Virus record (IMG/VR): IMGVR_UViG_3300036794_000053
Coordinates: 1 to 64,000 of that record
Direction: 5' to 3' (one strand)
Source: a virus
Taxonomy: Duplodnaviria; Caudoviricetes
Length of the DNA: 64,000 bases
Both the position numbers and the translations under genes were made by a program. A model generated the notes under the pieces. The model was given only the letters and a program-made list of their open reading frames with translations, was not told the origin of the DNA and ran no database searches. Positions 1 through 52,417 of this stretch are shown piece by piece; positions within the stretch are counted from its first letter, which is position 1, and the number at the start of each line of letters is the position of its first letter.

Positions 1-210
1 GCTCCCACCCGAACCGACAAACCGACCCTGGCCGAGCCTGACATCAACCCTTCCCGACTATCCAAGCCTCCCCTTCCCGTGTCGGCCCCACCCTCTCCGA
101 CAACCCGTCCCTGCCCGAGCCCTTTCGCCCCGCTCCATCCCGACTATCCGAACTGCAGGACACAAATGACCCACGCGTGTACCTGGACCCAACGCAATCC
201 CATCCAATTC
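1..210 (+). repeat. Periodic pentamer array (NNNCC)n punctuated by GAC; candidate guide-RNA locus, truncated by window edge
   Basis: GAC at 16, 56, 99, 142. Units 56-98 and 99-141 are exactly GAC + 8 pentamers (TATCC AAGCC TCCCC TTCCC GTGTC GGCCC CACCC TCTCC; AACCC GTCCC TGCCC GAGCC CTTTC GCCCC GCTCC ATCCC). Degenerate pentamers continue at 186-210. Transcribed strand unknown. Confidence 0.85.
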
Positions 211-222
211 GAAGGAGAAAAA

Positions 223-930
223 ATGACTACCAGTCTTGTCACGAGCGCGTTCGAGAAGTACATTCCGAAGGCGTGGCCTTACGAGTACTCTGGTACTCTC
301 CACATCAATCGGATCGCGGGTGGTGTCCCGACGAATCCGAATGTTGCGAAAGCGTGGATTGAGACTAAGCTCGGTAAGCAGACCGACGACATCATCCGCA
401 AGCAGGTTGTGGAGACGATGACTCAGCGCGGGGTTTCCATGGAGGAAGCCGTCGAGCTGGTCGACTCAAACAAGCACCTCAACGGTTTCAAACGGGACAA
501 GGCGCACGAAAACACCCTCTACATCGAGGGCCGTCAGCTGAAGGCCGCTATCAAGGAAGCCGCGTCGTGTGCGGTGGCGGTGGGTAAGCTTCCGTCCCGC
601 GGGTGGGGTGCCACGAACAAAGGTTCGAAAGCTTTCGTCGCCGAGCATATTTGTGTGGTGGAGGACATTCTCCACTTGGGTGTGACGGAGCCGACGGGTA
701 TCGCGCAGCGGTTCGTCGCCACCCACAACGGCACAGGTATCCAATATGAGGAGTATGTCGATGACGTCGACATCGACTTCACAGTAATTACTGACCACAA
801 GTTTCCGGAGGAGCAGTGGGCGATGTTGTGGCTCACCGGACAGGAACAAGGTATCGGTGCGACCCGGTCACAAGGCTACGGCCGTTACACCGTTACCCGC
901 TGGGACGCTGTGAGGACCCCACAGCAATGA
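223..930 (+). CDS. Stand-alone Cas7/RAMP-superfamily-like protein (235 aa)
   Basis: ATG 223 after GAAGGAG RBS. LYIEGRQLKAAIKEAA resembles the RAMP 'yIpGsslKGaiR' motif. C-terminal G-rich loop GIGATRSQGYGRY. Confidence 0.75.
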   Translation: MTTSLVTSAFEKYIPKAWPYEYSGTLHINRIAGGVPTNPNVAKAWIETKLGKQTDDIIRKQVVETMTQRGVSMEEAVELVDSNKHLNGFKRDKAHENTLYIEGRQLKAAIKEAASCAVAVGKLPSRGWGATNKGSKAFVAEHICVVEDILHLGVTEPTGIAQRFVATHNGTGIQYEEYVDDVDIDFTVITDHKFPEEQWAMLWLTGQEQGIGATRSQGYGRYTVTRWDAVRTPQQ

Positions 931-1142
931 ACCTCACTGTGTATGTGACAGCCGATTTGCACAGGCGTATGAAACGCGCGGAGCCCAGGATCAATATGTC
1001 TGACCTGGTCACGAAAGCGATTGAGGCTGAGCTGACGCGGCGCCAGGACGAAGCTGACCGCCAGCTCAGGTGGGCGGAGGAAATCTATGGCGACAAGATT
1101 CGGCCGTTTCCCTGGCTGCCGAGATGGAGGTATGGCGCGTGA
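927..1142 (+). CDS. Small ribbon-helix-helix-like DNA-binding protein
   Basis: ATGA overlap with upstream gene. MNLTVYVTADLHRRMK...INMSDLVTKAIEAEL fits the beta-alpha-alpha RHH pattern. Confidence 0.6.
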   Translation: MNLTVYVTADLHRRMKRAEPRINMSDLVTKAIEAELTRRQDEADRQLRWAEEIYGDKIRPFPWLPRWRYGA

Positions 1143-1909
1143 GTGAGGTAGCGGTCATAACCGAGCCGATCGACGCTGATGGGATCGCCGCGCTCCCACC
1201 CGAGCTGCGCGGTCAGGCAGTCACTTTGGCTTTGGCCCAGTCGAAAGAGTGGCTGACTGTCGCCACAAGGAGCACCGACCCGACCCGTGTCCAGGAGTTC
1301 AAGATGTGGGCGGCGGCTGTCGAGGAGATGACGCGTCAGAAGAAGCTTTCGGAGGAGATTCAGCTTGATGCGCAGGAGATGCTTCGGCGAGCTGAGCGTG
1401 GTGTCGCGCTGGTCCAGGCTGAGATGGATCGAGCTGGTCTGCTCCGTGGTGCTGGGCGCCCTGAGAAAATTCCTCACATTGTGAAGGATTTCGAGTCAGC
1501 GAGTTCGTTGTACAGCAACACGCGGGAGTACGTGGATGCGCAGGATATGGCTAGGGGTGTCTCCGATGAGGACTTCGAGGACGTTATCCAGGAGGAGCGT
1601 GCGGCGCCGAAGCCGAATATGAGTCGTCGGAACATTGCGAGGAAGTCGCGTGAGCGTTCTGGCCGCGAGGTGATCCCCCGCAATACGCGGCCGGCGAGGT
1701 TCGAGGTGGACGTCGGAGACTCAGCGTGCGCCCCTCCGGTGTTGAGGGAAGACATGATTCGGGAGATCAGTGAGTGGGGGTTCGCTGGCCGCGACCTCAT
1801 CCCAGCTTTATCTGTGGATGAACGTAACTACATGATCCAGGTCTTAGTGAAACTCGAAGGTGAGCTTAGAACCTCACCCGTCACAGTCGTTCAGGAGGAA
1901 CAACCGTGA
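1139..1909 (+). CDS. Hypothetical phage protein
   Basis: GTGA overlap with upstream gene; long helical ORF in operon. Confidence 0.7.
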   Translation: MSEVAVITEPIDADGIAALPPELRGQAVTLALAQSKEWLTVATRSTDPTRVQEFKMWAAAVEEMTRQKKLSEEIQLDAQEMLRRAERGVALVQAEMDRAGLLRGAGRPEKIPHIVKDFESASSLYSNTREYVDAQDMARGVSDEDFEDVIQEERAAPKPNMSRRNIARKSRERSGREVIPRNTRPARFEVDVGDSACAPPVLREDMIREISEWGFAGRDLIPALSVDERNYMIQVLVKLEGELRTSPVTVVQEEQP

Positions 1910-2322
1910 GTTACTTTGTAGAGATCGACCAGAACGCGATCAACGTGGGACGCAGACACCAACGCGGTAAGTGCGCCATCGCGTATGCAATCGCTAACCG
2001 ATATCCGGAGGCACGGCACATCAACGTGGACCGTGACGAGGTCAGGTTCACCGACTCCTACGAGCGGGTCCGGCACTGCTTCAAGATGCCGGATAACGGC
2101 ACCGAGTTCGTCGACAAGTGGGACGCGGACGAACCAGTCGAACCGTTCCGGTTGAACCTCACTCCGAGCTTGGAGAAGTGGAATAAGCCGGCGAAGGAAC
2201 GCAGCCCGCGCGACCTGGTGCGGACCACGCACGTGAACACCGAGTTGCCGTTGGCGCCGCGGAGCGTGTCACCGAAGTCGATCGCTACTAGGCCGATGAA
2301 GAAGCAGGAGGCCGGAAGTTGA
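1906..2322 (+). CDS. Hypothetical protein
   Basis: AGGAGG RBS, GTGA overlap. Confidence 0.7.
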   Translation: MSYFVEIDQNAINVGRRHQRGKCAIAYAIANRYPEARHINVDRDEVRFTDSYERVRHCFKMPDNGTEFVDKWDADEPVEPFRLNLTPSLEKWNKPAKERSPRDLVRTTHVNTELPLAPRSVSPKSIATRPMKKQEAGS

Positions 2323-2467
2323 CCTCCGCCGGCCGTCACCGCGGGGACCGCCCCAACCCAACCTTGCAGGGGCTTCGCGGCCGAACCACGCATCACATGA
2401 ATGATCGTGGGAAAGTCCCCGCCCATTTCATCATCGATCTCATCAAAACCGAGAAGTCGAAGGTTGC

Positions 2468-2743
2468 GTGATGACGGATGAAGAGCCGAAGAGGAAGGCG
2501 CCTGCGAAGCCTCGGGTGCGTCGTCTTGCCGCGGCAGCAGCCGCCGAAGCCGAAGCCGAAGCGGGATCAGCGTCGCAAGCCTGGTTCGAGCCGTTAACGG
2601 AGAAGTGGTTTGACGAGGTGCCACCGCCGTGGCTGGCTGCGTGGTCGCAGGATGACACGCCGATTGGTTGCGAGTTGGCGCGGGAGAAAGCCCGTGCGGT
2701 CGCGGCTGCTATCCCGAAGCAGGAGACTCCGAAAGATGCGTAG
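2468..2743 (+). CDS. Hypothetical protein
   Basis: ORF in rightward gene run. Confidence 0.5.
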   Translation: MMTDEEPKRKAPAKPRVRRLAAAAAAEAEAEAGSASQAWFEPLTEKWFDEVPPPWLAAWSQDDTPIGCELAREKARAVAAAIPKQETPKDA

Positions 2744-2964
2744 CTGATTCGTCCGGTTGGTTTTACCGCGGCCGGCCCGGATGGTGTGGATCATCGTGTT
2801 GCCGTGTCGATTCCGTCGGTTGAGTGGGATCGGACTGAGGTTTTAACAGTGTGTGGTTTGTTGATTGTGTTGCATCCGTGGTCGTGTGAGGCGGTGTTTC
2901 ATGCGCGGGATGGTTTATGCCCAAGTTGTTGGGATTCGTTGTTCACAAGGGAGAGGCAAGACTG

Positions 2965-3654
2965 ATGTCCATTGATCTGGAGATGTACGCTCAGATCGTC
3001 CTCAGCCGCGGCGGTCACTCGATGCGCTCGTCGGGGTTGTGTTTGATGGAGGCGGCGGCGCTCATCGCCGGCGAGAAACACTCCGACCACCCGGGGTGCG
3101 TGTCATACACGCTGACCTCTTTCGGGATCGGGTTGAATGATCAGCTGCCGGACGATTTGCGGCAGGAACTGAAGCAGCACATCCCCGCGCTGATCGGTAC
3201 CCGCGACGACGGGTTGGACGTGCAGCGTAAGCACATGTCGTTCGACTGGCTGGCGCGGACGTGGCTGCCCACCTTCCTGGACTTGCCGGCCGACTCGCAG
3301 TGCGCCGAGGCGGCTCAGCAGCTCCGCGACCTCGGCGCCATTACGGACCGAGAGTCGGTGTGTGATGCTGTTCAGCTGGTGGAGAAGGTTTGCGCGGATG
3401 TGCCGGGATCGGCTGGCAATACTCGGTACGGCACGCCGGTGGGGTCGTCCATGTATTACCCCGCGGTCAACGCCGCGTACGGCATCCCGTTTGACGGGAG
3501 CATTTTGGGCGGCCGCAAGCAGAGCCTGCTCGAATCGGGGCTGACGAGCCTCGCCGGGCACGCCATCGAGGCAAGTACACGCGACGTTGATGCGACGGTG
3601 CGTGAGCTGCAGCTGTCCGCGATCGGCCTTTACGGCGACATGATCAAGGCCTGA
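2965..3654 (+). CDS. Hypothetical protein (CLMEAA...SDHPxCVS family)
   Basis: AAGGGAGAGG RBS before ATG 2965. Confidence 0.7.
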   Translation: MSIDLEMYAQIVLSRGGHSMRSSGLCLMEAAALIAGEKHSDHPGCVSYTLTSFGIGLNDQLPDDLRQELKQHIPALIGTRDDGLDVQRKHMSFDWLARTWLPTFLDLPADSQCAEAAQQLRDLGAITDRESVCDAVQLVEKVCADVPGSAGNTRYGTPVGSSMYYPAVNAAYGIPFDGSILGGRKQSLLESGLTSLAGHAIEASTRDVDATVRELQLSAIGLYGDMIKA

Positions 3655-3695: not shown

Positions 3696-5168
3696 GTGGC
3701 GACGACTGTAGTGAAGAAGTTGGTGGACTCCGATCTCATCACCGGCGATGAGATCGAGTTCCGCACCGACGACAAGAAACTCATCACGCTGCCGAAGGGC
3801 ACGAAGTACAGCGAGTTGATGAGGATTCTGGAGGCGAAGAAGCAGGAACAGGAAACTGTTGCTGACTTCACCCGAGTCTTCAATTACCGCCCGTATGACG
3901 GTGCGGTGGCCACCGCGATCGTGCTCAAGGCTAGGTATGGGTTGGTGATGGGGAAAACCCTCACCATCCAAACCCCGTTCGGTGAGCAGAAACGGCCGCC
4001 GCAGGTGTTGGAGGTCCCGATCGGGCCGGGTGGGAAGTCGATGCAGGCGCCGTGGGGGTGCATCGAGATTCCCGTGATCGAGGGCGGCGAGGTGCATCTG
4101 GGTGCGACGACGCACTCCGATTTCGGGTCGGTGTTCTTTATCCGGATTCGGGCGAAGCGGATGTACGCGAAGGAAGCGGAGGAGTTTTTCGCCGAGATCG
4201 CGGAGCAGTTGAAGAACGCGAGCATCTACCGTGGTAAAGCGGTGGCGGGTGCCGATGAGTTGGCGTTCATCGAGGACCTGGACAAGTTCGATCCGAAGCA
4301 GATCGTGTTCGCCGCCGGGATTCAGCAGCAGCTGGAGGCGGCGTTGTATTCGCCGCTGCGTCATCCGCAGGCGTACCGGTCGGAGAAGATTCCGCTGAAG
4401 CGCGCGGTGCTGTTGCACGGCCCGTACGGAACAGGGAAGACCAGCATCGGGATGTTGGTGGCTCAGGAGGCGGTGAAGGCGGGGTGGACGTTTGTGATGG
4501 CCCGCCCGGGCCGTGACCGCGTCCAAGATGTCCTCACCACTGCCCGGTTGTATGCGCCGGCTGTGGTGTGGGTGGAGGACATCGACACCGACACCGGCTC
4601 CAGCAACCCGAAGTCGATCTCCGAGATGCTGGATGCGTTTGACGGCATCACCACCAAGCAGGGTGAGATCATGATCGCCCTATCCACCAACCATATCGAT
4701 CGCGTGCCACCGGGAATGTTGCGTCCTGGCCGTCTCGACTATGTGTTGGAGATCGCGGCGCTGGATCGGGAAGCGACCGAGCGGCTGATTCGGGTGGTGG
4801 TGGCGCCTGGGAAGTTGGCGAAGAACGTCGACTTCGACGCGGTGTACGCGGAGATGGATCATTTCCTCCCCGCGTTTGTCCGGGCCACAGCCGATCGGGC
4901 CAGGTCGTTCGCTATCCACCGCACGAACGGTCGCACCGACTATGTCCTCACCACGGAGGATTTGGTGGGTGCGGCGCGGAGTCTGCATTCCCAGCGTGCC
5001 CTGCATCAGAGCGCGCAGGACCCGGCGCCGTTGCCGTCGGTGGATAAGGCGTTCCGTGACGCGGTCACGAAGGCCGTGAATGGGGTGCAGATGTTGGACG
5101 ACGACGGGGATTACATGGGGAAGTTGACTGTTCCCGCCGCTCCCGTCGCGCGGCCACTAAGAACCTAG
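3696..5168 (+). CDS. Classical AAA ATPase (single AAA module, long N-terminal region)
   Basis: Walker A GPYGTGKT, Walker B VVWVEDID, second region of homology TNHIDRVPPGMLRPGRLD. Confidence 0.92.
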   Translation: MATTVVKKLVDSDLITGDEIEFRTDDKKLITLPKGTKYSELMRILEAKKQEQETVADFTRVFNYRPYDGAVATAIVLKARYGLVMGKTLTIQTPFGEQKRPPQVLEVPIGPGGKSMQAPWGCIEIPVIEGGEVHLGATTHSDFGSVFFIRIRAKRMYAKEAEEFFAEIAEQLKNASIYRGKAVAGADELAFIEDLDKFDPKQIVFAAGIQQQLEAALYSPLRHPQAYRSEKIPLKRAVLLHGPYGTGKTSIGMLVAQEAVKAGWTFVMARPGRDRVQDVLTTARLYAPAVVWVEDIDTDTGSSNPKSISEMLDAFDGITTKQGEIMIALSTNHIDRVPPGMLRPGRLDYVLEIAALDREATERLIRVVVAPGKLAKNVDFDAVYAEMDHFLPAFVRATADRARSFAIHRTNGRTDYVLTTEDLVGAARSLHSQRALHQSAQDPAPLPSVDKAFRDAVTKAVNGVQMLDDDGDYMGKLTVPAAPVARPLRT

Positions 5169-18898: not shown

Positions 18899-19918
18899 TT
18901 GAGTTGGTTGAAGATTGATGATGGGTTTCATTCTCATCCGAAGGTGTTGGAGGCTGGGAATGAGGCGGTTGGTTTGTGGGTGCGGTGTGGTGCTTATTGT
19001 GCGCAGCATTTGACGGATGGGTTCGTACCCCGTCAGATTGTTCTGATTTACGGCAGTGTGACGTTGGCGGAGGTGTTGGTCGAGGTGCGTCTGTGGGTGT
19101 CTGTTGATGGTGGTTGGCAGATGAACGACTTCTTGACATACAACAGGTCGCGTTCGCAAGTCTTATCAGATCGTAAGGAGGGGTTGGAGCGGCAGCGGCG
19201 GTCTCGTGAACGCCGAAAGGGTGTTGACGAGGGAGAACAGGTCGACGCTATCAACGGTCACAGCGTGAGTCACAGCGTGACAACTAGTGACAGTCACAGT
19301 GTGAGTCACGCGTCTGTCACACCGACCGGTGTCACACCGACCCGACCCGACCCGATAACTACTAATAAGAACAAACGGTCGGCCGAAGCCGACCAAGACT
19401 TCGCCGAGTTCTGGACGCACTACCCACGTAAGCGCCAGAAAACCGACGCACGAACCGCCTGGACACAACAACTACGCAAGAACGTCACACCCGAACGCAT
19501 GATCAACGGCTCAGCCGGCTACGCCCAACACTGCCGCGACCGCAACATCGACGACCAGTTCATCAAATACCCGGGCGCCTGGCTGCGCGCCGGCGGCTAC
19601 GACGACTACCAGCCGGAACCCGACCCGCTGGACGGCGACCCGGCCGAAGTGCTGCGGGAACTGTGGCGGATCGCCGACGCCAAAACCGTGGCCTCGATCC
19701 TTCGAGTCCCGTTCGTTGACCGGCCACAACCACCCAGCGACGGCACCCCGCGCGACCAGTGGCTGCGGGACTCCCGCCGCTCGTGGATCGAGGACCATAT
19801 CGAGGCCGCGAAACAAGCGCTGAGCTGCCGCCAATCCACACCGTGGCCCCTGACCCCACCGCATCCCTCCCAGTCGCTCTCGAACGGCGCCAGCCGGCAG
19901 CACACGGTGTCGCCATGA
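18899..19918 (+). CDS. Phage replication initiator (Rep/O-like)
   Basis: WLKIDDGFHSHPKV...GLWVR...TDGFVP N-domain; FAEFWTHYPRK and YPGAWL C-domain; internal iterons; precedes DnaB. Start 18899 or 18872. Confidence 0.8.
   Translation: MSWLKIDDGFHSHPKVLEAGNEAVGLWVRCGAYCAQHLTDGFVPRQIVLIYGSVTLAEVLVEVRLWVSVDGGWQMNDFLTYNRSRSQVLSDRKEGLERQRRSRERRKGVDEGEQVDAINGHSVSHSVTTSDSHSVSHASVTPTGVTPTRPDPITTNKNKRSAEADQDFAEFWTHYPRKRQKTDARTAWTQQLRKNVTPERMINGSAGYAQHCRDRNIDDQFIKYPGAWLRAGGYDDYQPEPDPLDGDPAEVLRELWRIADAKTVASILRVPFVDRPQPPSDGTPRDQWLRDSRRSWIEDHIEAAKQALSCRQSTPWPLTPPHPSQSLSNGASRQHTVSP
19257..19376. promoter_or_regulatory. Putative replication origin (iterons + AT-rich tract) inside rep
   Basis: Clustered GTCAC/GTGA(C/G) repeats 19257-19335, (CCGAC)n, then TAACTACTAATAAGAACAAA. 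Confidence 0.65.
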
Positions 19919-27949: not shown

Positions 27950-28246
27950 ATGTTGAGCGAGCAGTTCACGAAGTCGAGTTTCTCGGTGTTGAGCTGTGTT
28001 GAGGTGGCGTACCGCAAGTCCTCGTTCTGTGGCCACCCCGGCTGTGTCGAGGTGGGTGCCGGCGACGACGGGCATGTGCACATGAGGGACTCGAAGGACC
28101 CGGATGGCACGGTGTTGACGTTCACCCGCGAGGAATGGGAGTTGTTCCTGGCGGGTGCGAAGGCCGGCGAGTTTGATCTTCCCCTTCCTCGCGCTGGTGT
28201 CGAGGTCGGGTATCTGTTCGCTCAGAGCGTTGTTGAGGGTGGCTGA
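27950..28246 (+). CDS. DUF397 protein with duplicated N-terminal motif
   Basis: KSSFS..SCVEVA then RKSSFC...GCVEV; RDSKDP; FTREEWELFLAGAKAGEFD. Confidence 0.9.
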   Translation: MLSEQFTKSSFSVLSCVEVAYRKSSFCGHPGCVEVGAGDDGHVHMRDSKDPDGTVLTFTREEWELFLAGAKAGEFDLPLPRAGVEVGYLFAQSVVEGG

Positions 28247-28961
28247 TGGCTCATTCGCCGCACCGCCGGTGGAAGGGTTGCCAGTTGTGTAAGCCGCAGA
28301 AGTTCCGTGATCTGGGTCGGGCTAGGCGTGATCCGTTCGCGGTGCGTCGGAAGCTGGGTACCAGGCGGCGGGCTGGTCGGCATGATGTGCCGGCGGATCA
28401 GTGTGAAGCTGCTTCGTAGGTGGCGTTGCCACGGTTCGTGGTGGTGTTGCCAGTATTGCGACGAGCCGATGTGCAATGGCTGGCATGATCCGCACCTGGT
28501 TGCTAGGTGGTTTTACCGTCGCCGTGTGAGGAGAGAGCAGCGACGCGAAGAACGCGAGGACGAAGAAAAGCGTGAACGGCAACGGCGAGAGGCAGATGAG
28601 TGGCGTGAACGGCGCCGACGCACCTACGGTTGGTGAGCGGATCGCGCCGGTGCAGGTGGTGTGTGGGATGTGCGGCCGGTGGGGTGTGCGTAAGCCGGGC
28701 GACGAAACGTTGATCATGCACCTGGGCAGGATCGCGCCATGCCGGGAGAAGAATGGCTAGGTTGTTGGGTGCGTCGCATTACTGGCGTTCTTGGCATTGT
28801 GGTTGGCGCAGCTCGCCTTGGGCGGCTAAGTGGCCGAGAGCTGTGCAGGTTTCGTTTAAACGGCGGCAGCGTAAGGTTGAGAACCGTCGTTGGCGTAAGG
28901 ATCAACTCCACCCGAATGGGTGATCAAATCAGCGGGGCGGCCCACGTTACGGTGCCAATCA

Positions 28962-29552
28962 ATGAACTCTGAACTCGACTTCTCCCGGTTCCACCCACTT
29001 GACCACCGACCCGGCGGCGCCCGGTGCCGCTCGCTGTATGGCGGCACGCGGAATCACCTGGTGATGGCGTGGCAGTTCAAGTGGTCCGCGCGGCTGCGTG
29101 AGCTGACGTTGTGCCGGCTGGGCTGGCATGAGCGCTGCACCGCAACGTCCTACAACTCGGACGGTACGGAACGGAAGCGGCAGGCATGTTGGTCGTGCGG
29201 CGCCGATCTGCGGTGCCGGCACCGGTGGATTTACGGCCAGCTGGACGGTGAGATCGTTGAGCATTGCCAGCTGTGTTCCGTCGAGGCGCCTGATCGGGGT
29301 GTCAAGGTCCATGCGTGGCTGAGGAAGCATCACTTGCCTCGTATCCATGGGTGTATTTGGGATCGGCATTGCCGGTTCTGGTGTCCGTGTGCGCGGGTGT
29401 CGTTGTATTGGGGTCCGTTGTCGGTTGATGTTGAGCTGCCTGGTTATTGGGTGGGTATGGACCTTGACTTTGAGACGCATATTGCGGTGCGGCGGCGGAT
29501 GTGGGAACGCGGCCACGTCAGTTGTCATTGGAGGCAGCAACGCTGGCACTGA
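28962..29552 (+). CDS. Cys/His-rich hypothetical protein
   Basis: ORF with several Zn-ligand pairs. Confidence 0.55.
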   Translation: MNSELDFSRFHPLDHRPGGARCRSLYGGTRNHLVMAWQFKWSARLRELTLCRLGWHERCTATSYNSDGTERKRQACWSCGADLRCRHRWIYGQLDGEIVEHCQLCSVEAPDRGVKVHAWLRKHHLPRIHGCIWDRHCRFWCPCARVSLYWGPLSVDVELPGYWVGMDLDFETHIAVRRRMWERGHVSCHWRQQRWH

Positions 29553-52138: not shown

Positions 52139-52240
52139 TCCAAAGTGGACGCTGGGCGCGCTCCTATGTGGACGGACGCGGGTGTCCTATGTGGACTCGC
52201 GGCGTGTCCTATGTGGACGCCAGAGCGGTCCTATGTGGAC
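52139..52240. repeat. Five phased 12-bp direct repeats TCCTATGTGGAC
   Basis: Copies at 52139 (TCCAAAGTGGAC), 52162, 52185, 52207, 52229; period 22-23 nt. Confidence 0.9.
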
Positions 52241-52417
52241 ACACCTACCCTCGGGGGGTATCGGGGAGGTTAGGGTACACTCCCCCCCACCCAGGCCAGC
52301 CTAGCCTAACCCAGGGCAAGGGTTCTTGACCGTTCGCGTTTTTGCTGTTCAGGCGTGCCCTGTTTTTTCTGCGCGCGTGCGTGAGCTGCCTGGTGTTGGT
52401 GTGTAGCCTGTTGTGTT

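Follow-up and report, generated by a model that had tools for sequence, protein, structure and literature searches.

A probable VIPR system with C-rich pentamer units in an actinobacterial phage

VIPR (Viral Interference Programmable Repeat) systems, first described in two preprints of April-June 2026 (bioRxiv 10.64898/2026.04.26.720920 and.720927), are built around a lone ancestral RAMP protein, Vipr, which polymerises on a vrRNA composed of GGY/NN units, each 5-nt repeat taking up one protomer (10.64898/2026.04.26.720920,.720927). Vipr hides the GGY letters, exposes the NN pair, binds double-stranded DNA while skipping one base per unit and represses transcription (10.64898/2026.04.26.720920,.720927). 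The loci usually consist of vipr and one accessory gene, vap, without a CRISPR array, and most of them are viral (10.64898/2026.04.26.720920,.720927). Here, we describe a locus at the very beginning of a 64,000-nt stretch of DNA (the window, positions 1 to 64,000 of the virus record IMGVR_UViG_3300036794_000053; Duplodnaviria, Caudoviricetes), in which the gene of a 235-aa RAMP-like protein follows an array of C-rich pentamers, and which is very probably a VIPR system of an actinobacterial phage.

The class is only months old, and bench work has so far been confined to G-G-Y systems from Proteobacteria. Our reference was the type II VIPR of the Escherichia phage SUSP1, which comprises Vipr, vap1 and four vrRNAs; vipr (28474-29061) and vap1 (28031-28471) both lie on the minus strand and the GGY/NN repeats are on the gene strand. 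The SUSP1 Vipr residues that read the guanines are D177, W178 and R138 (10.64898/2026.04.26.720920,.720927, 2026.10.15.759431). In its account of seven VIPR types, the first paper (10.64898/2026.04.26.720920) mentions some with the repeats NNNGG, YNNNG or NNNNG and some with 'staggered' or ribozyme-spaced arrays. Furthermore, the main text of a study with a genomic language model (bioRxiv 10.64898/2026.10.21.760802) presents 21 clusters of 5-nt arrays that are linked to Vipr and use non-canonical trinucleotides, for example GAC/NN, CAC/NN, WGT/NN and TGH/NN; among the motifs named in that main text, YCC/NN does not occur. Since such trinucleotides are published, constant letters other than GGY do not exclude a locus from the class. 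With the VIPR class in print, as well as repeat letters that are non-canonical, the present locus is a variant of a published class.

The virus record has 106,197 bp (G+C content 62%, CheckV completeness 86%, without a terminal repeat), the window covers its bases 1-64000, and window base 1 is contig base 1. All parts of the module are on one strand, in the order of a conserved 178-aa accessory gene at the far end of the contig, the array of guide units and vipr at 223-930, and the same order of 178-aa gene, array and RAMP gene recurs in every relative. The original prediction, made from the sequence of the window, had looked to DNA upstream of the window for the full array; no such sequence exists, because the window begins with the first base of the contig, and the remainder of the array was found at 106003-106197, following the 178-aa gene. 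With array sequence at both contig ends and the gene order of the relatives, we conclude that the genome is circular or circularly permuted and that the assembly was broken inside the array. No overlap exists between the two ends, which are separated by a gap; taken together, they hold at least 9 GAC marks and at least 340 nt of array. A megablast search of window positions 1-3000 against phage records gave zero matches. The features of the module are as follows.

Genome 106003-106197 (outside the window): 5′ part of the array, the last 195 contig bases, directly after the stop codon of the 178-aa gene
1-144, plus strand (the probable RNA strand): 3′ part of the vrRNA-type array, recognised by direct reading, lag-5 periodicity and a grammar common to the relatives
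1-18, plus strand: partial array unit with its closing GAC at 16-18
19-26, plus strand: array unit of one pentamer, by direct reading
27-58, plus strand: irregular array unit, by direct reading
59-101 and 102-144, plus strand: two clean 43-nt array units, each of 8 x NN-y-CC plus GAC
145-222, plus strand: trailer and vipr 5′ untranslated region, with a lone TATCC pentamer, degenerate non-periodic sequence and then the ribosome-binding site GAAGGAG at 211-217
223-930, plus strand: vipr, encoding a 235-aa minimal RAMP, preceded by this ribosome-binding site (AlphaFold2 model, Foldseek, VIA and hhalign)

The RAMP protein and its relatives

The 235-aa open reading frame, its ribosome-binding site and the RAMP-like motifs quoted in the original prediction are all present. 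An AlphaFold2 model, computed from an alignment of 31 homologs, reached a predicted local distance difference test score (pLDDT) of 76 and displayed the following elements, in protein positions.

RRM core
About 39-83: helical insertion
About 159-180: thumb beta-hairpin
206-222: G-loop, GIGATRSQGYGRY

Searches with this model bore out the RAMP fold. The top Foldseek matches in the PDB were exclusively Cas7-type RAMPs (type VII Cas7, Csm3 and Cas7-11/gRAMP), the best with an E value of 4e-6, and the top 19 rows of the VIA structural search were all RAMPs as well, headed by type VII Cas7 (8yhd_A; Z 10.3, root-mean-square deviation 4.2, 137 residues), with Csm3 of 9g9a at Z 9.4. In the BFVD library of viral structures, the sole clear matches were RAMP-like proteins of phages and of archaeal viruses. 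At the sequence level, Pfam and PHROGs returned nothing for the protein, and phmmer against the PDB sequences gave chance matches only. The homologs form a large family, with at least 1383 proteins at E <= 1e-3 in a word-indexed search, mainly from Actinomycetes and metagenomes, and 740 clusters at 50% identity in an exhaustive profile search.

The link to Vipr itself was made by comparing profiles. With hhalign, the profile of SUSP1-type Vipr proteins (A2) matched a profile built from a diverse set of the present family (A4) at 93% and E 3.5e-7 over 131 collinear columns, extending from just before helix-1 (LYIEGRQLKAAIKEA against GFVMNGEMIEACIKSG) via the thumb to the G-loop (GIGATRSQGYGRY against GVGDWRPRFGRF). 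Because of this match and the RAMP fold, we take the 235-aa protein to be a Vipr, which supports the resemblance to the then newly reported VIPR systems that had been noted in the original prediction. As in the SUSP1 system, we find a minimal RAMP that stands alone and combines an RRM core with a helical bundle, a thumb and a G-loop; it is encoded by a phage next to a small conserved gene that may be its accessory gene, with neither cas1 nor a CRISPR array.

The Cas7 proteins of class 1 CRISPR systems (type VII Cas7, Csm3, Cmr4, Csf2 and Cas7-11) provided the best structural matches and share the G-loop and the thumb, whereas sequence identity to them is 10-20%, the step along the RNA would be 5 nt here as compared with 6 nt, and the locus has no Cas5, Cas8, Cas10 or Cas11 partners, no Cas6, no Cas1 and no repeat-spacer array. 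Cas1 was not detected in the 106-kb genome by a search that recovered its positive controls, and no CRISPR-like tandem array was found in the 64-kb window, in agreement with what had been noticed initially. The neighbours of vipr are ParB-like proteins, an AAA ATPase and unknown proteins, rather than the other cas genes and repeat-spacer array of class 1 CRISPR-Cas, and the location is viral, the contig being a 106-kb virus record.

The pentamer array and its grammar

Within the array, CC recurred at a lag of 5 nt 21 times, compared with 10.3 +/- 2.7 times in 500 dinucleotide shuffles (z 4.0, equalled in 0/500), and the z value increased to 6.2 when the window array was joined to the part at the contig end. 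A lag of 3 was depleted (z -2.7), and the enrichment of lag 5 together with the depletion of lag 3 identifies the tract as periodic and non-coding. The recurrence of CC every 5 nt was thus rightly observed at the outset, as were the 43-nt units, of which two are clean. Two further claims had to be revised: the array had been thought to run for at least 210 nt right up to the ribosome-binding site, but its regular part stops at 144, or at 149 with the lone TATCC included, bases 150-210 being degenerate and non-periodic, and in place of three variable bases per pentamer only positions 1 and 2 are free, which gives the unit NN-y-CC.

These statistics speak to the view that there is no functional element at all and that the tract is either low-complexity DNA rich in C or proline-rich coding sequence that extends an open reading frame 1-930, its periodicity being only apparent, a view to which we give hardly any credence. 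Frame 1 has no stop codon anywhere in 1-930, but only because C-rich DNA lacks them, and a crude CC-phase scan also scored proline-rich coding sequence at ~74.3 kb. Such an explanation is contradicted by the enriched lag 5 and depleted lag 3 relative to dinucleotide shuffles, by unit lengths quantised at 5n+3, by the strong ribosome-binding site and ATG at 211-225, by the stop codon of the accessory gene that precedes the array in the joined genome and by the recurrence of the same grammar in 14 of 16 loci. The signal of the crude scan, at genome positions ~74290-74560, consists of PPxAP-type repeats and was discarded as a false positive.

We compared the array with 19 related loci, taken from assembled metagenomes, genomes of actinobacteria and viral contigs. 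The relatives include WP_344176836.1 of Nocardiopsis tropica and WP_428502255.1 of Pseudonocardia sp., and the cultured strains Nocardiopsis tropica JCM 10877 and Streptacidiphilus carbonis NBRC 100919 carry the loci L012 and L016. An automatic phase-aware scan detected CC-pentamer arrays directly upstream of vipr and on the gene strand in 15 of them, and locus L006 in addition possesses a degenerate, GAC-punctuated array that the scan had missed; none of the upstream arrays is in GG phase, CC being always on the gene strand. Splitting the arrays at CC|GAC yielded 209 units, the lengths of which peak at 33, 38, 43 and 48 nt, that is, at 5n+3 or 6-9 pentamers plus GAC. Positions 1 and 2 of the pentamer vary, position 3 is C in 43-68% of cases (usually about half), position 4 in ~75% and position 5 in ~90%, and the first pentamer following a GAC is usually TACCC-like.

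The periodicity that had been proposed as a check on homologous loci is present in 14 of the 16 loci in which both genes occur, where the interval between the accessory gene and vipr is occupied by the array. These intervals measure 185-1058 nt, are mostly ~50% C and contain 3-23 CCGAC marks, with arrays starting 0-106 nt past the accessory stop codon and ending 15-62 nt before vipr (119 nt in one locus); in L002, the array does run up to the ribosome-binding site. In L008 and L019, the accessory gene and vipr adjoin with gaps of 236 and 38 nt and no array in between, so their guides, if any, must be elsewhere. In comparisons with the two closest relatives of this phage, array identity was at the shuffle baseline (0.49-0.57), while identity at the DNA level was 74-80% for vipr and 62-65% for the accessory gene. 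Conserved flanking genes around an array at the shuffle baseline are what a turnover of guide content would be expected to leave.

The same features bear on the possibility that the array acts as DNA, in the form of iterons, a centromere for a ParB-like or ribbon-helix-helix (RHH) protein, or a G-quadruplex/i-motif tract at an origin or packaging site, and that the RAMP-like gene is merely adjacent. Two ParB-like genes just upstream of the accessory gene, a possible RHH gene after vipr and the break of the contig at this point, as would occur at a repeat or a genome end, are in line with such a role. Across actinobacterial phages and a cyanophage, however, the arrays are linked to the RAMP and accessory genes and not to ParB or RHH genes, the RHH gene not being conserved; no more than 2-3 of 5 positions stay constant, the others being at the shuffle baseline, unlike protein-binding iterons; and the same architecture has been found experimentally to be an RNA guide in the homologous system. 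We therefore regard a DNA element as very improbable.

Arrays are not restricted to the upstream position. L007 and L020 carry additional arrays downstream of vipr, and in the Microcystis phage Mae-JY09, which has a 31%-identical homolog, the array begins immediately after the vipr stop codon, again with CC on the gene strand. The extra arrays of L007 (L007:7236-8920) occupy ~1.7 kb in two blocks, with ~560 nt of non-array sequence between them and several hairpins before the first block. A tRNA-like stretch with a T-arm motif between the two blocks was rejected, as ARAGORN makes no tRNA call there. On a metagenome contig encoding P0374, a 33%-identical Vipr homolog, an array downstream of the gene (L025:1147-1510) is made up of NNN-R-T pentamers with a linking AAACGAT-type mark that shifts the phase by 5n+2, and a UUCG hairpin terminator on the plus strand marks its end; the fixed letters follow another code here, within the same protein family. 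The contig encoding P0366 has an upstream array (L026:1-290) in which only the last C is strongly fixed (NNNNC), with GAC punctuation and 43-48-nt units, which suggests a gradient of degeneracy within the clade.

Compared with SUSP1, the arrays share adjacent 5-nt repeats on the vipr strand with about three constrained and two free positions. They differ in that the constant letters are y-C-C instead of G-G-Y, guides have 6-9 pentamers instead of 9-16, and the array is located between the accessory gene and vipr without a recognisable promoter of its own. Moreover, the structured invariant 3′ tail or pseudoknot of type II VIPR is lacking, the units abutting with only GAC between them, and Rfam families, including the hammerhead ribozyme, were not found in or beside the array. 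The direct abutment, in which the end of one guide is the start of the next, is shared with the 'staggered' vrRNA arrays as the legend of fig. S18 in 10.64898/2026.04.26.720920 describes them. The alternative repeats NNNGG, YNNNG and NNNNG given in that paper resemble the present ones in their degenerate two- or one-letter constant parts, to which the NNNNC plus GAC of L026 can be added, but they are written with G, whereas the gene-strand letters here are C. Likewise, the arrays presented in the main text of the language-model study (10.64898/2026.10.21.760802) have a fixed non-GGY trinucleotide at a 5-nt period beside a Vipr-like fold, with the NN-N-R-T repeat of L025 as a similar case, and yet comprise ~10 repeats per array as opposed to the units of 6-9 pentamers chained by GAC. 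As far as the main texts of these publications go, they do not contain the combination of y-C-C letters with GAC-chained, tail-less units that are flanked by a new accessory gene and vipr, in a very large actinobacterial-phage clade.

Transcribed strand, proposed mechanism and targets

Which strand is transcribed decides the fixed letters, y-C-C on the gene strand or G-G-r on the other, and the motif departs from GGY/NN as originally remarked. We infer that the array RNA is very likely made from the gene strand. The opposite strand would give guides antisense to the operon with the structure GTC-(GG-r-NN)k, a near-canonical G-based vrRNA; two strongly conserved G, a semi-conserved base and NN stand in the order of GGY/NN, and the first VIPR paper gives NNNGG and NNNNG as alternative consensus repeats. 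Guides of this kind are nevertheless improbable in view of the arrangement of the loci. The array lies between two genes of the same direction, with next to no spacer towards either of them, and since only 15-62 nt (119 nt in one locus) separate it from vipr, an antisense promoter would have to sit in coding sequence. Arrays keep one orientation relative to vipr on either side of the gene, including that of Mae-JY09 right behind the vipr stop codon, and the vrRNAs of SUSP1 are on the gene strand.

Terminators point in the same direction. The downstream array of L007 ends ~15 nt before a strong bidirectional terminator (folding free energy -39 / -44.6 kcal/mol, with an A-run and a U-run), which closes convergent minus-strand genes, one of them resembling a lysis amidase by eye; minus-strand transcription cannot easily enter an array that abuts this terminator, and there is no room for a promoter. 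A UUCG hairpin with a U-rich tail stands behind the L025 array on the plus strand; the reverse strand folds no better than shuffles. Furthermore, conservation along the plus strand increases towards the variable pair, here as in L025.

We propose the following as the most likely mode of action of a gene-strand RNA. The array would be transcribed within the accessory-vipr operon, and the transcript would be cut at or near the GAC/TA junctions by Vipr, the accessory protein or a host RNase; with units lacking a tail, pseudoknot or ribozyme, biogenesis would have to rely on this junction. By homology to the described systems, one Vipr protomer would then occupy each pentamer, holding the constant y-C-C and exposing the two variable bases, so that a guide might present 12-18 specifying bases. 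The resulting filament may recognise a gapped DNA target and repress it without cleavage, and its targets are probably in rival phages or prophages. In outline, this is the scheme of the original prediction, a nuclease-free filament of one RAMP subunit per pentamer on a non-contiguous guide, which is supported by the fold, the profile match to SUSP1 Vipr and the arrays of the homologous loci.

Several observations weigh against this interpretation, either against the assignment to Vipr or against the strand and the guides. The match to SUSP1 Vipr amounted to 43% with a shallow alignment and to the 93% given above with a more diverse one, and the N-terminal third lies outside the profile alignment. 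The SUSP1 residues contacting GGY, D177, W178 and R138, align with A213, T214 and E176 of the present protein and are not conserved, a replacement that is compatible with a different letter preference. A co-variation of G-loop residues with the repeat letters was considered and rejected, because L025-type proteins with NRT repeats have a near-identical G-loop; with a near-identical G-loop despite a different repeat motif, no residue-to-motif rule can be derived. Consensus scans around the locus revealed no convincing promoter or terminator on either strand; the missing plus-strand promoter is a point in favour of opposite-strand guides, and so is the opposite-strand motif GG-r-NN, which looks closer to the published GGY/NN and to which the published NNNGG and NNNNG would fit; these two repeats could represent the present clade as written from the other strand.

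The searches for targets, which identified none, belong here as well, although they were of low power given 14-18 specifying bases and exact-match tools. When 53 clean units were compared, with skips of 0-3, with ~275 kb of the phage's own and related phage DNA, the real units did no better than shuffled ones. Scans of IMG/VR with the 16-base gapped patterns of the two clean 8-pentamer units (1-nt skip) gave 9 matches each, which we take as chance; the matches had mixed G+C content and unrelated contexts, with no common gene family beyond one lineage that was counted three times.

The locus stands for a very large clade in phages of high-GC Gram-positives, comprising more than 1383 proteins, and departs from the bench-studied systems in three respects, namely its fixed letters, its short, tail-less, GAC-chained guides and a conserved partner matching no known fold. 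In the fullest form of our interpretation, this clade would use a pyrimidine-based scaffold code, in which C-rich (NN-y-CC)6-9-GAC guides are cut from the operon mRNA without tail, pseudoknot or ribozyme, the G-contacting residues have been lost and the accessory partner matches no known fold; we consider the chances that all of this holds to be evenly balanced. If it does, the constant letters of VIPR would be freely re-assignable and a 3-nt punctuation alone would suffice for guide biogenesis. A C-rich RNA strand would show how Viprs re-specify their scaffold letters and would offer a simpler guide format for engineering and a native-type programmable repressor for the genetics of Streptomyces, Nocardiopsis and mycobacteria. 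If the RNA is the G-rich strand, the locus is simply one more member of the published family.

The accessory protein and other neighbours

The 178-aa accessory gene is conserved in 16 loci, and its product is recognisable directly upstream of distant vipr homologs as well (hhalign 97.8% for L027 and 95.3% for Mae-JY09). Its model is mostly helical (pLDDT 88) and matches no known fold, the highest VIA Z being 4.5 and Foldseek giving nothing at E <= 0.001. In contrast to SUSP1, the gene is placed upstream and the protein is unrelated to vap1, to which it showed no similarity in a comparison that covered vap1 among vap1-6.

Immediately upstream of the accessory gene and outside the window, two consecutive ParB-like genes (PHROG ParB-like; Pfam DUF6551) occupy genome positions 103553-105396 (L023:5554-7397). 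The pair may reflect a plasmid-prophage lifestyle or encode a ParB-type nuclease. On the other side of the module, one further gene adjoins vipr.

927-1142, plus strand: 71-aa gene overlapping the vipr stop codon (ATGA), possibly of the RHH type, with a weak Pfam CcdA match at the N-terminus (E 0.0015, below the curated cut-off)

None of the 19 related loci has a homolog of this gene adjoining vipr, and it is lineage-specific. It was considered as the vap and rejected, as it is not conserved, and its membership in the VIPR system is uncertain.

Downstream of the module, the early region encodes an AAA ATPase of 490 aa (window 3696-5168; Pfam AAA E 3.5e-17, phrog_10440 E 7e-68). TRF also reported two tandem repeats in the window that are unrelated to the VIPR array, one at 19257-19321 (period 12, 5.5 copies) and one at 52162-52242 (period 22, 3.6 copies).

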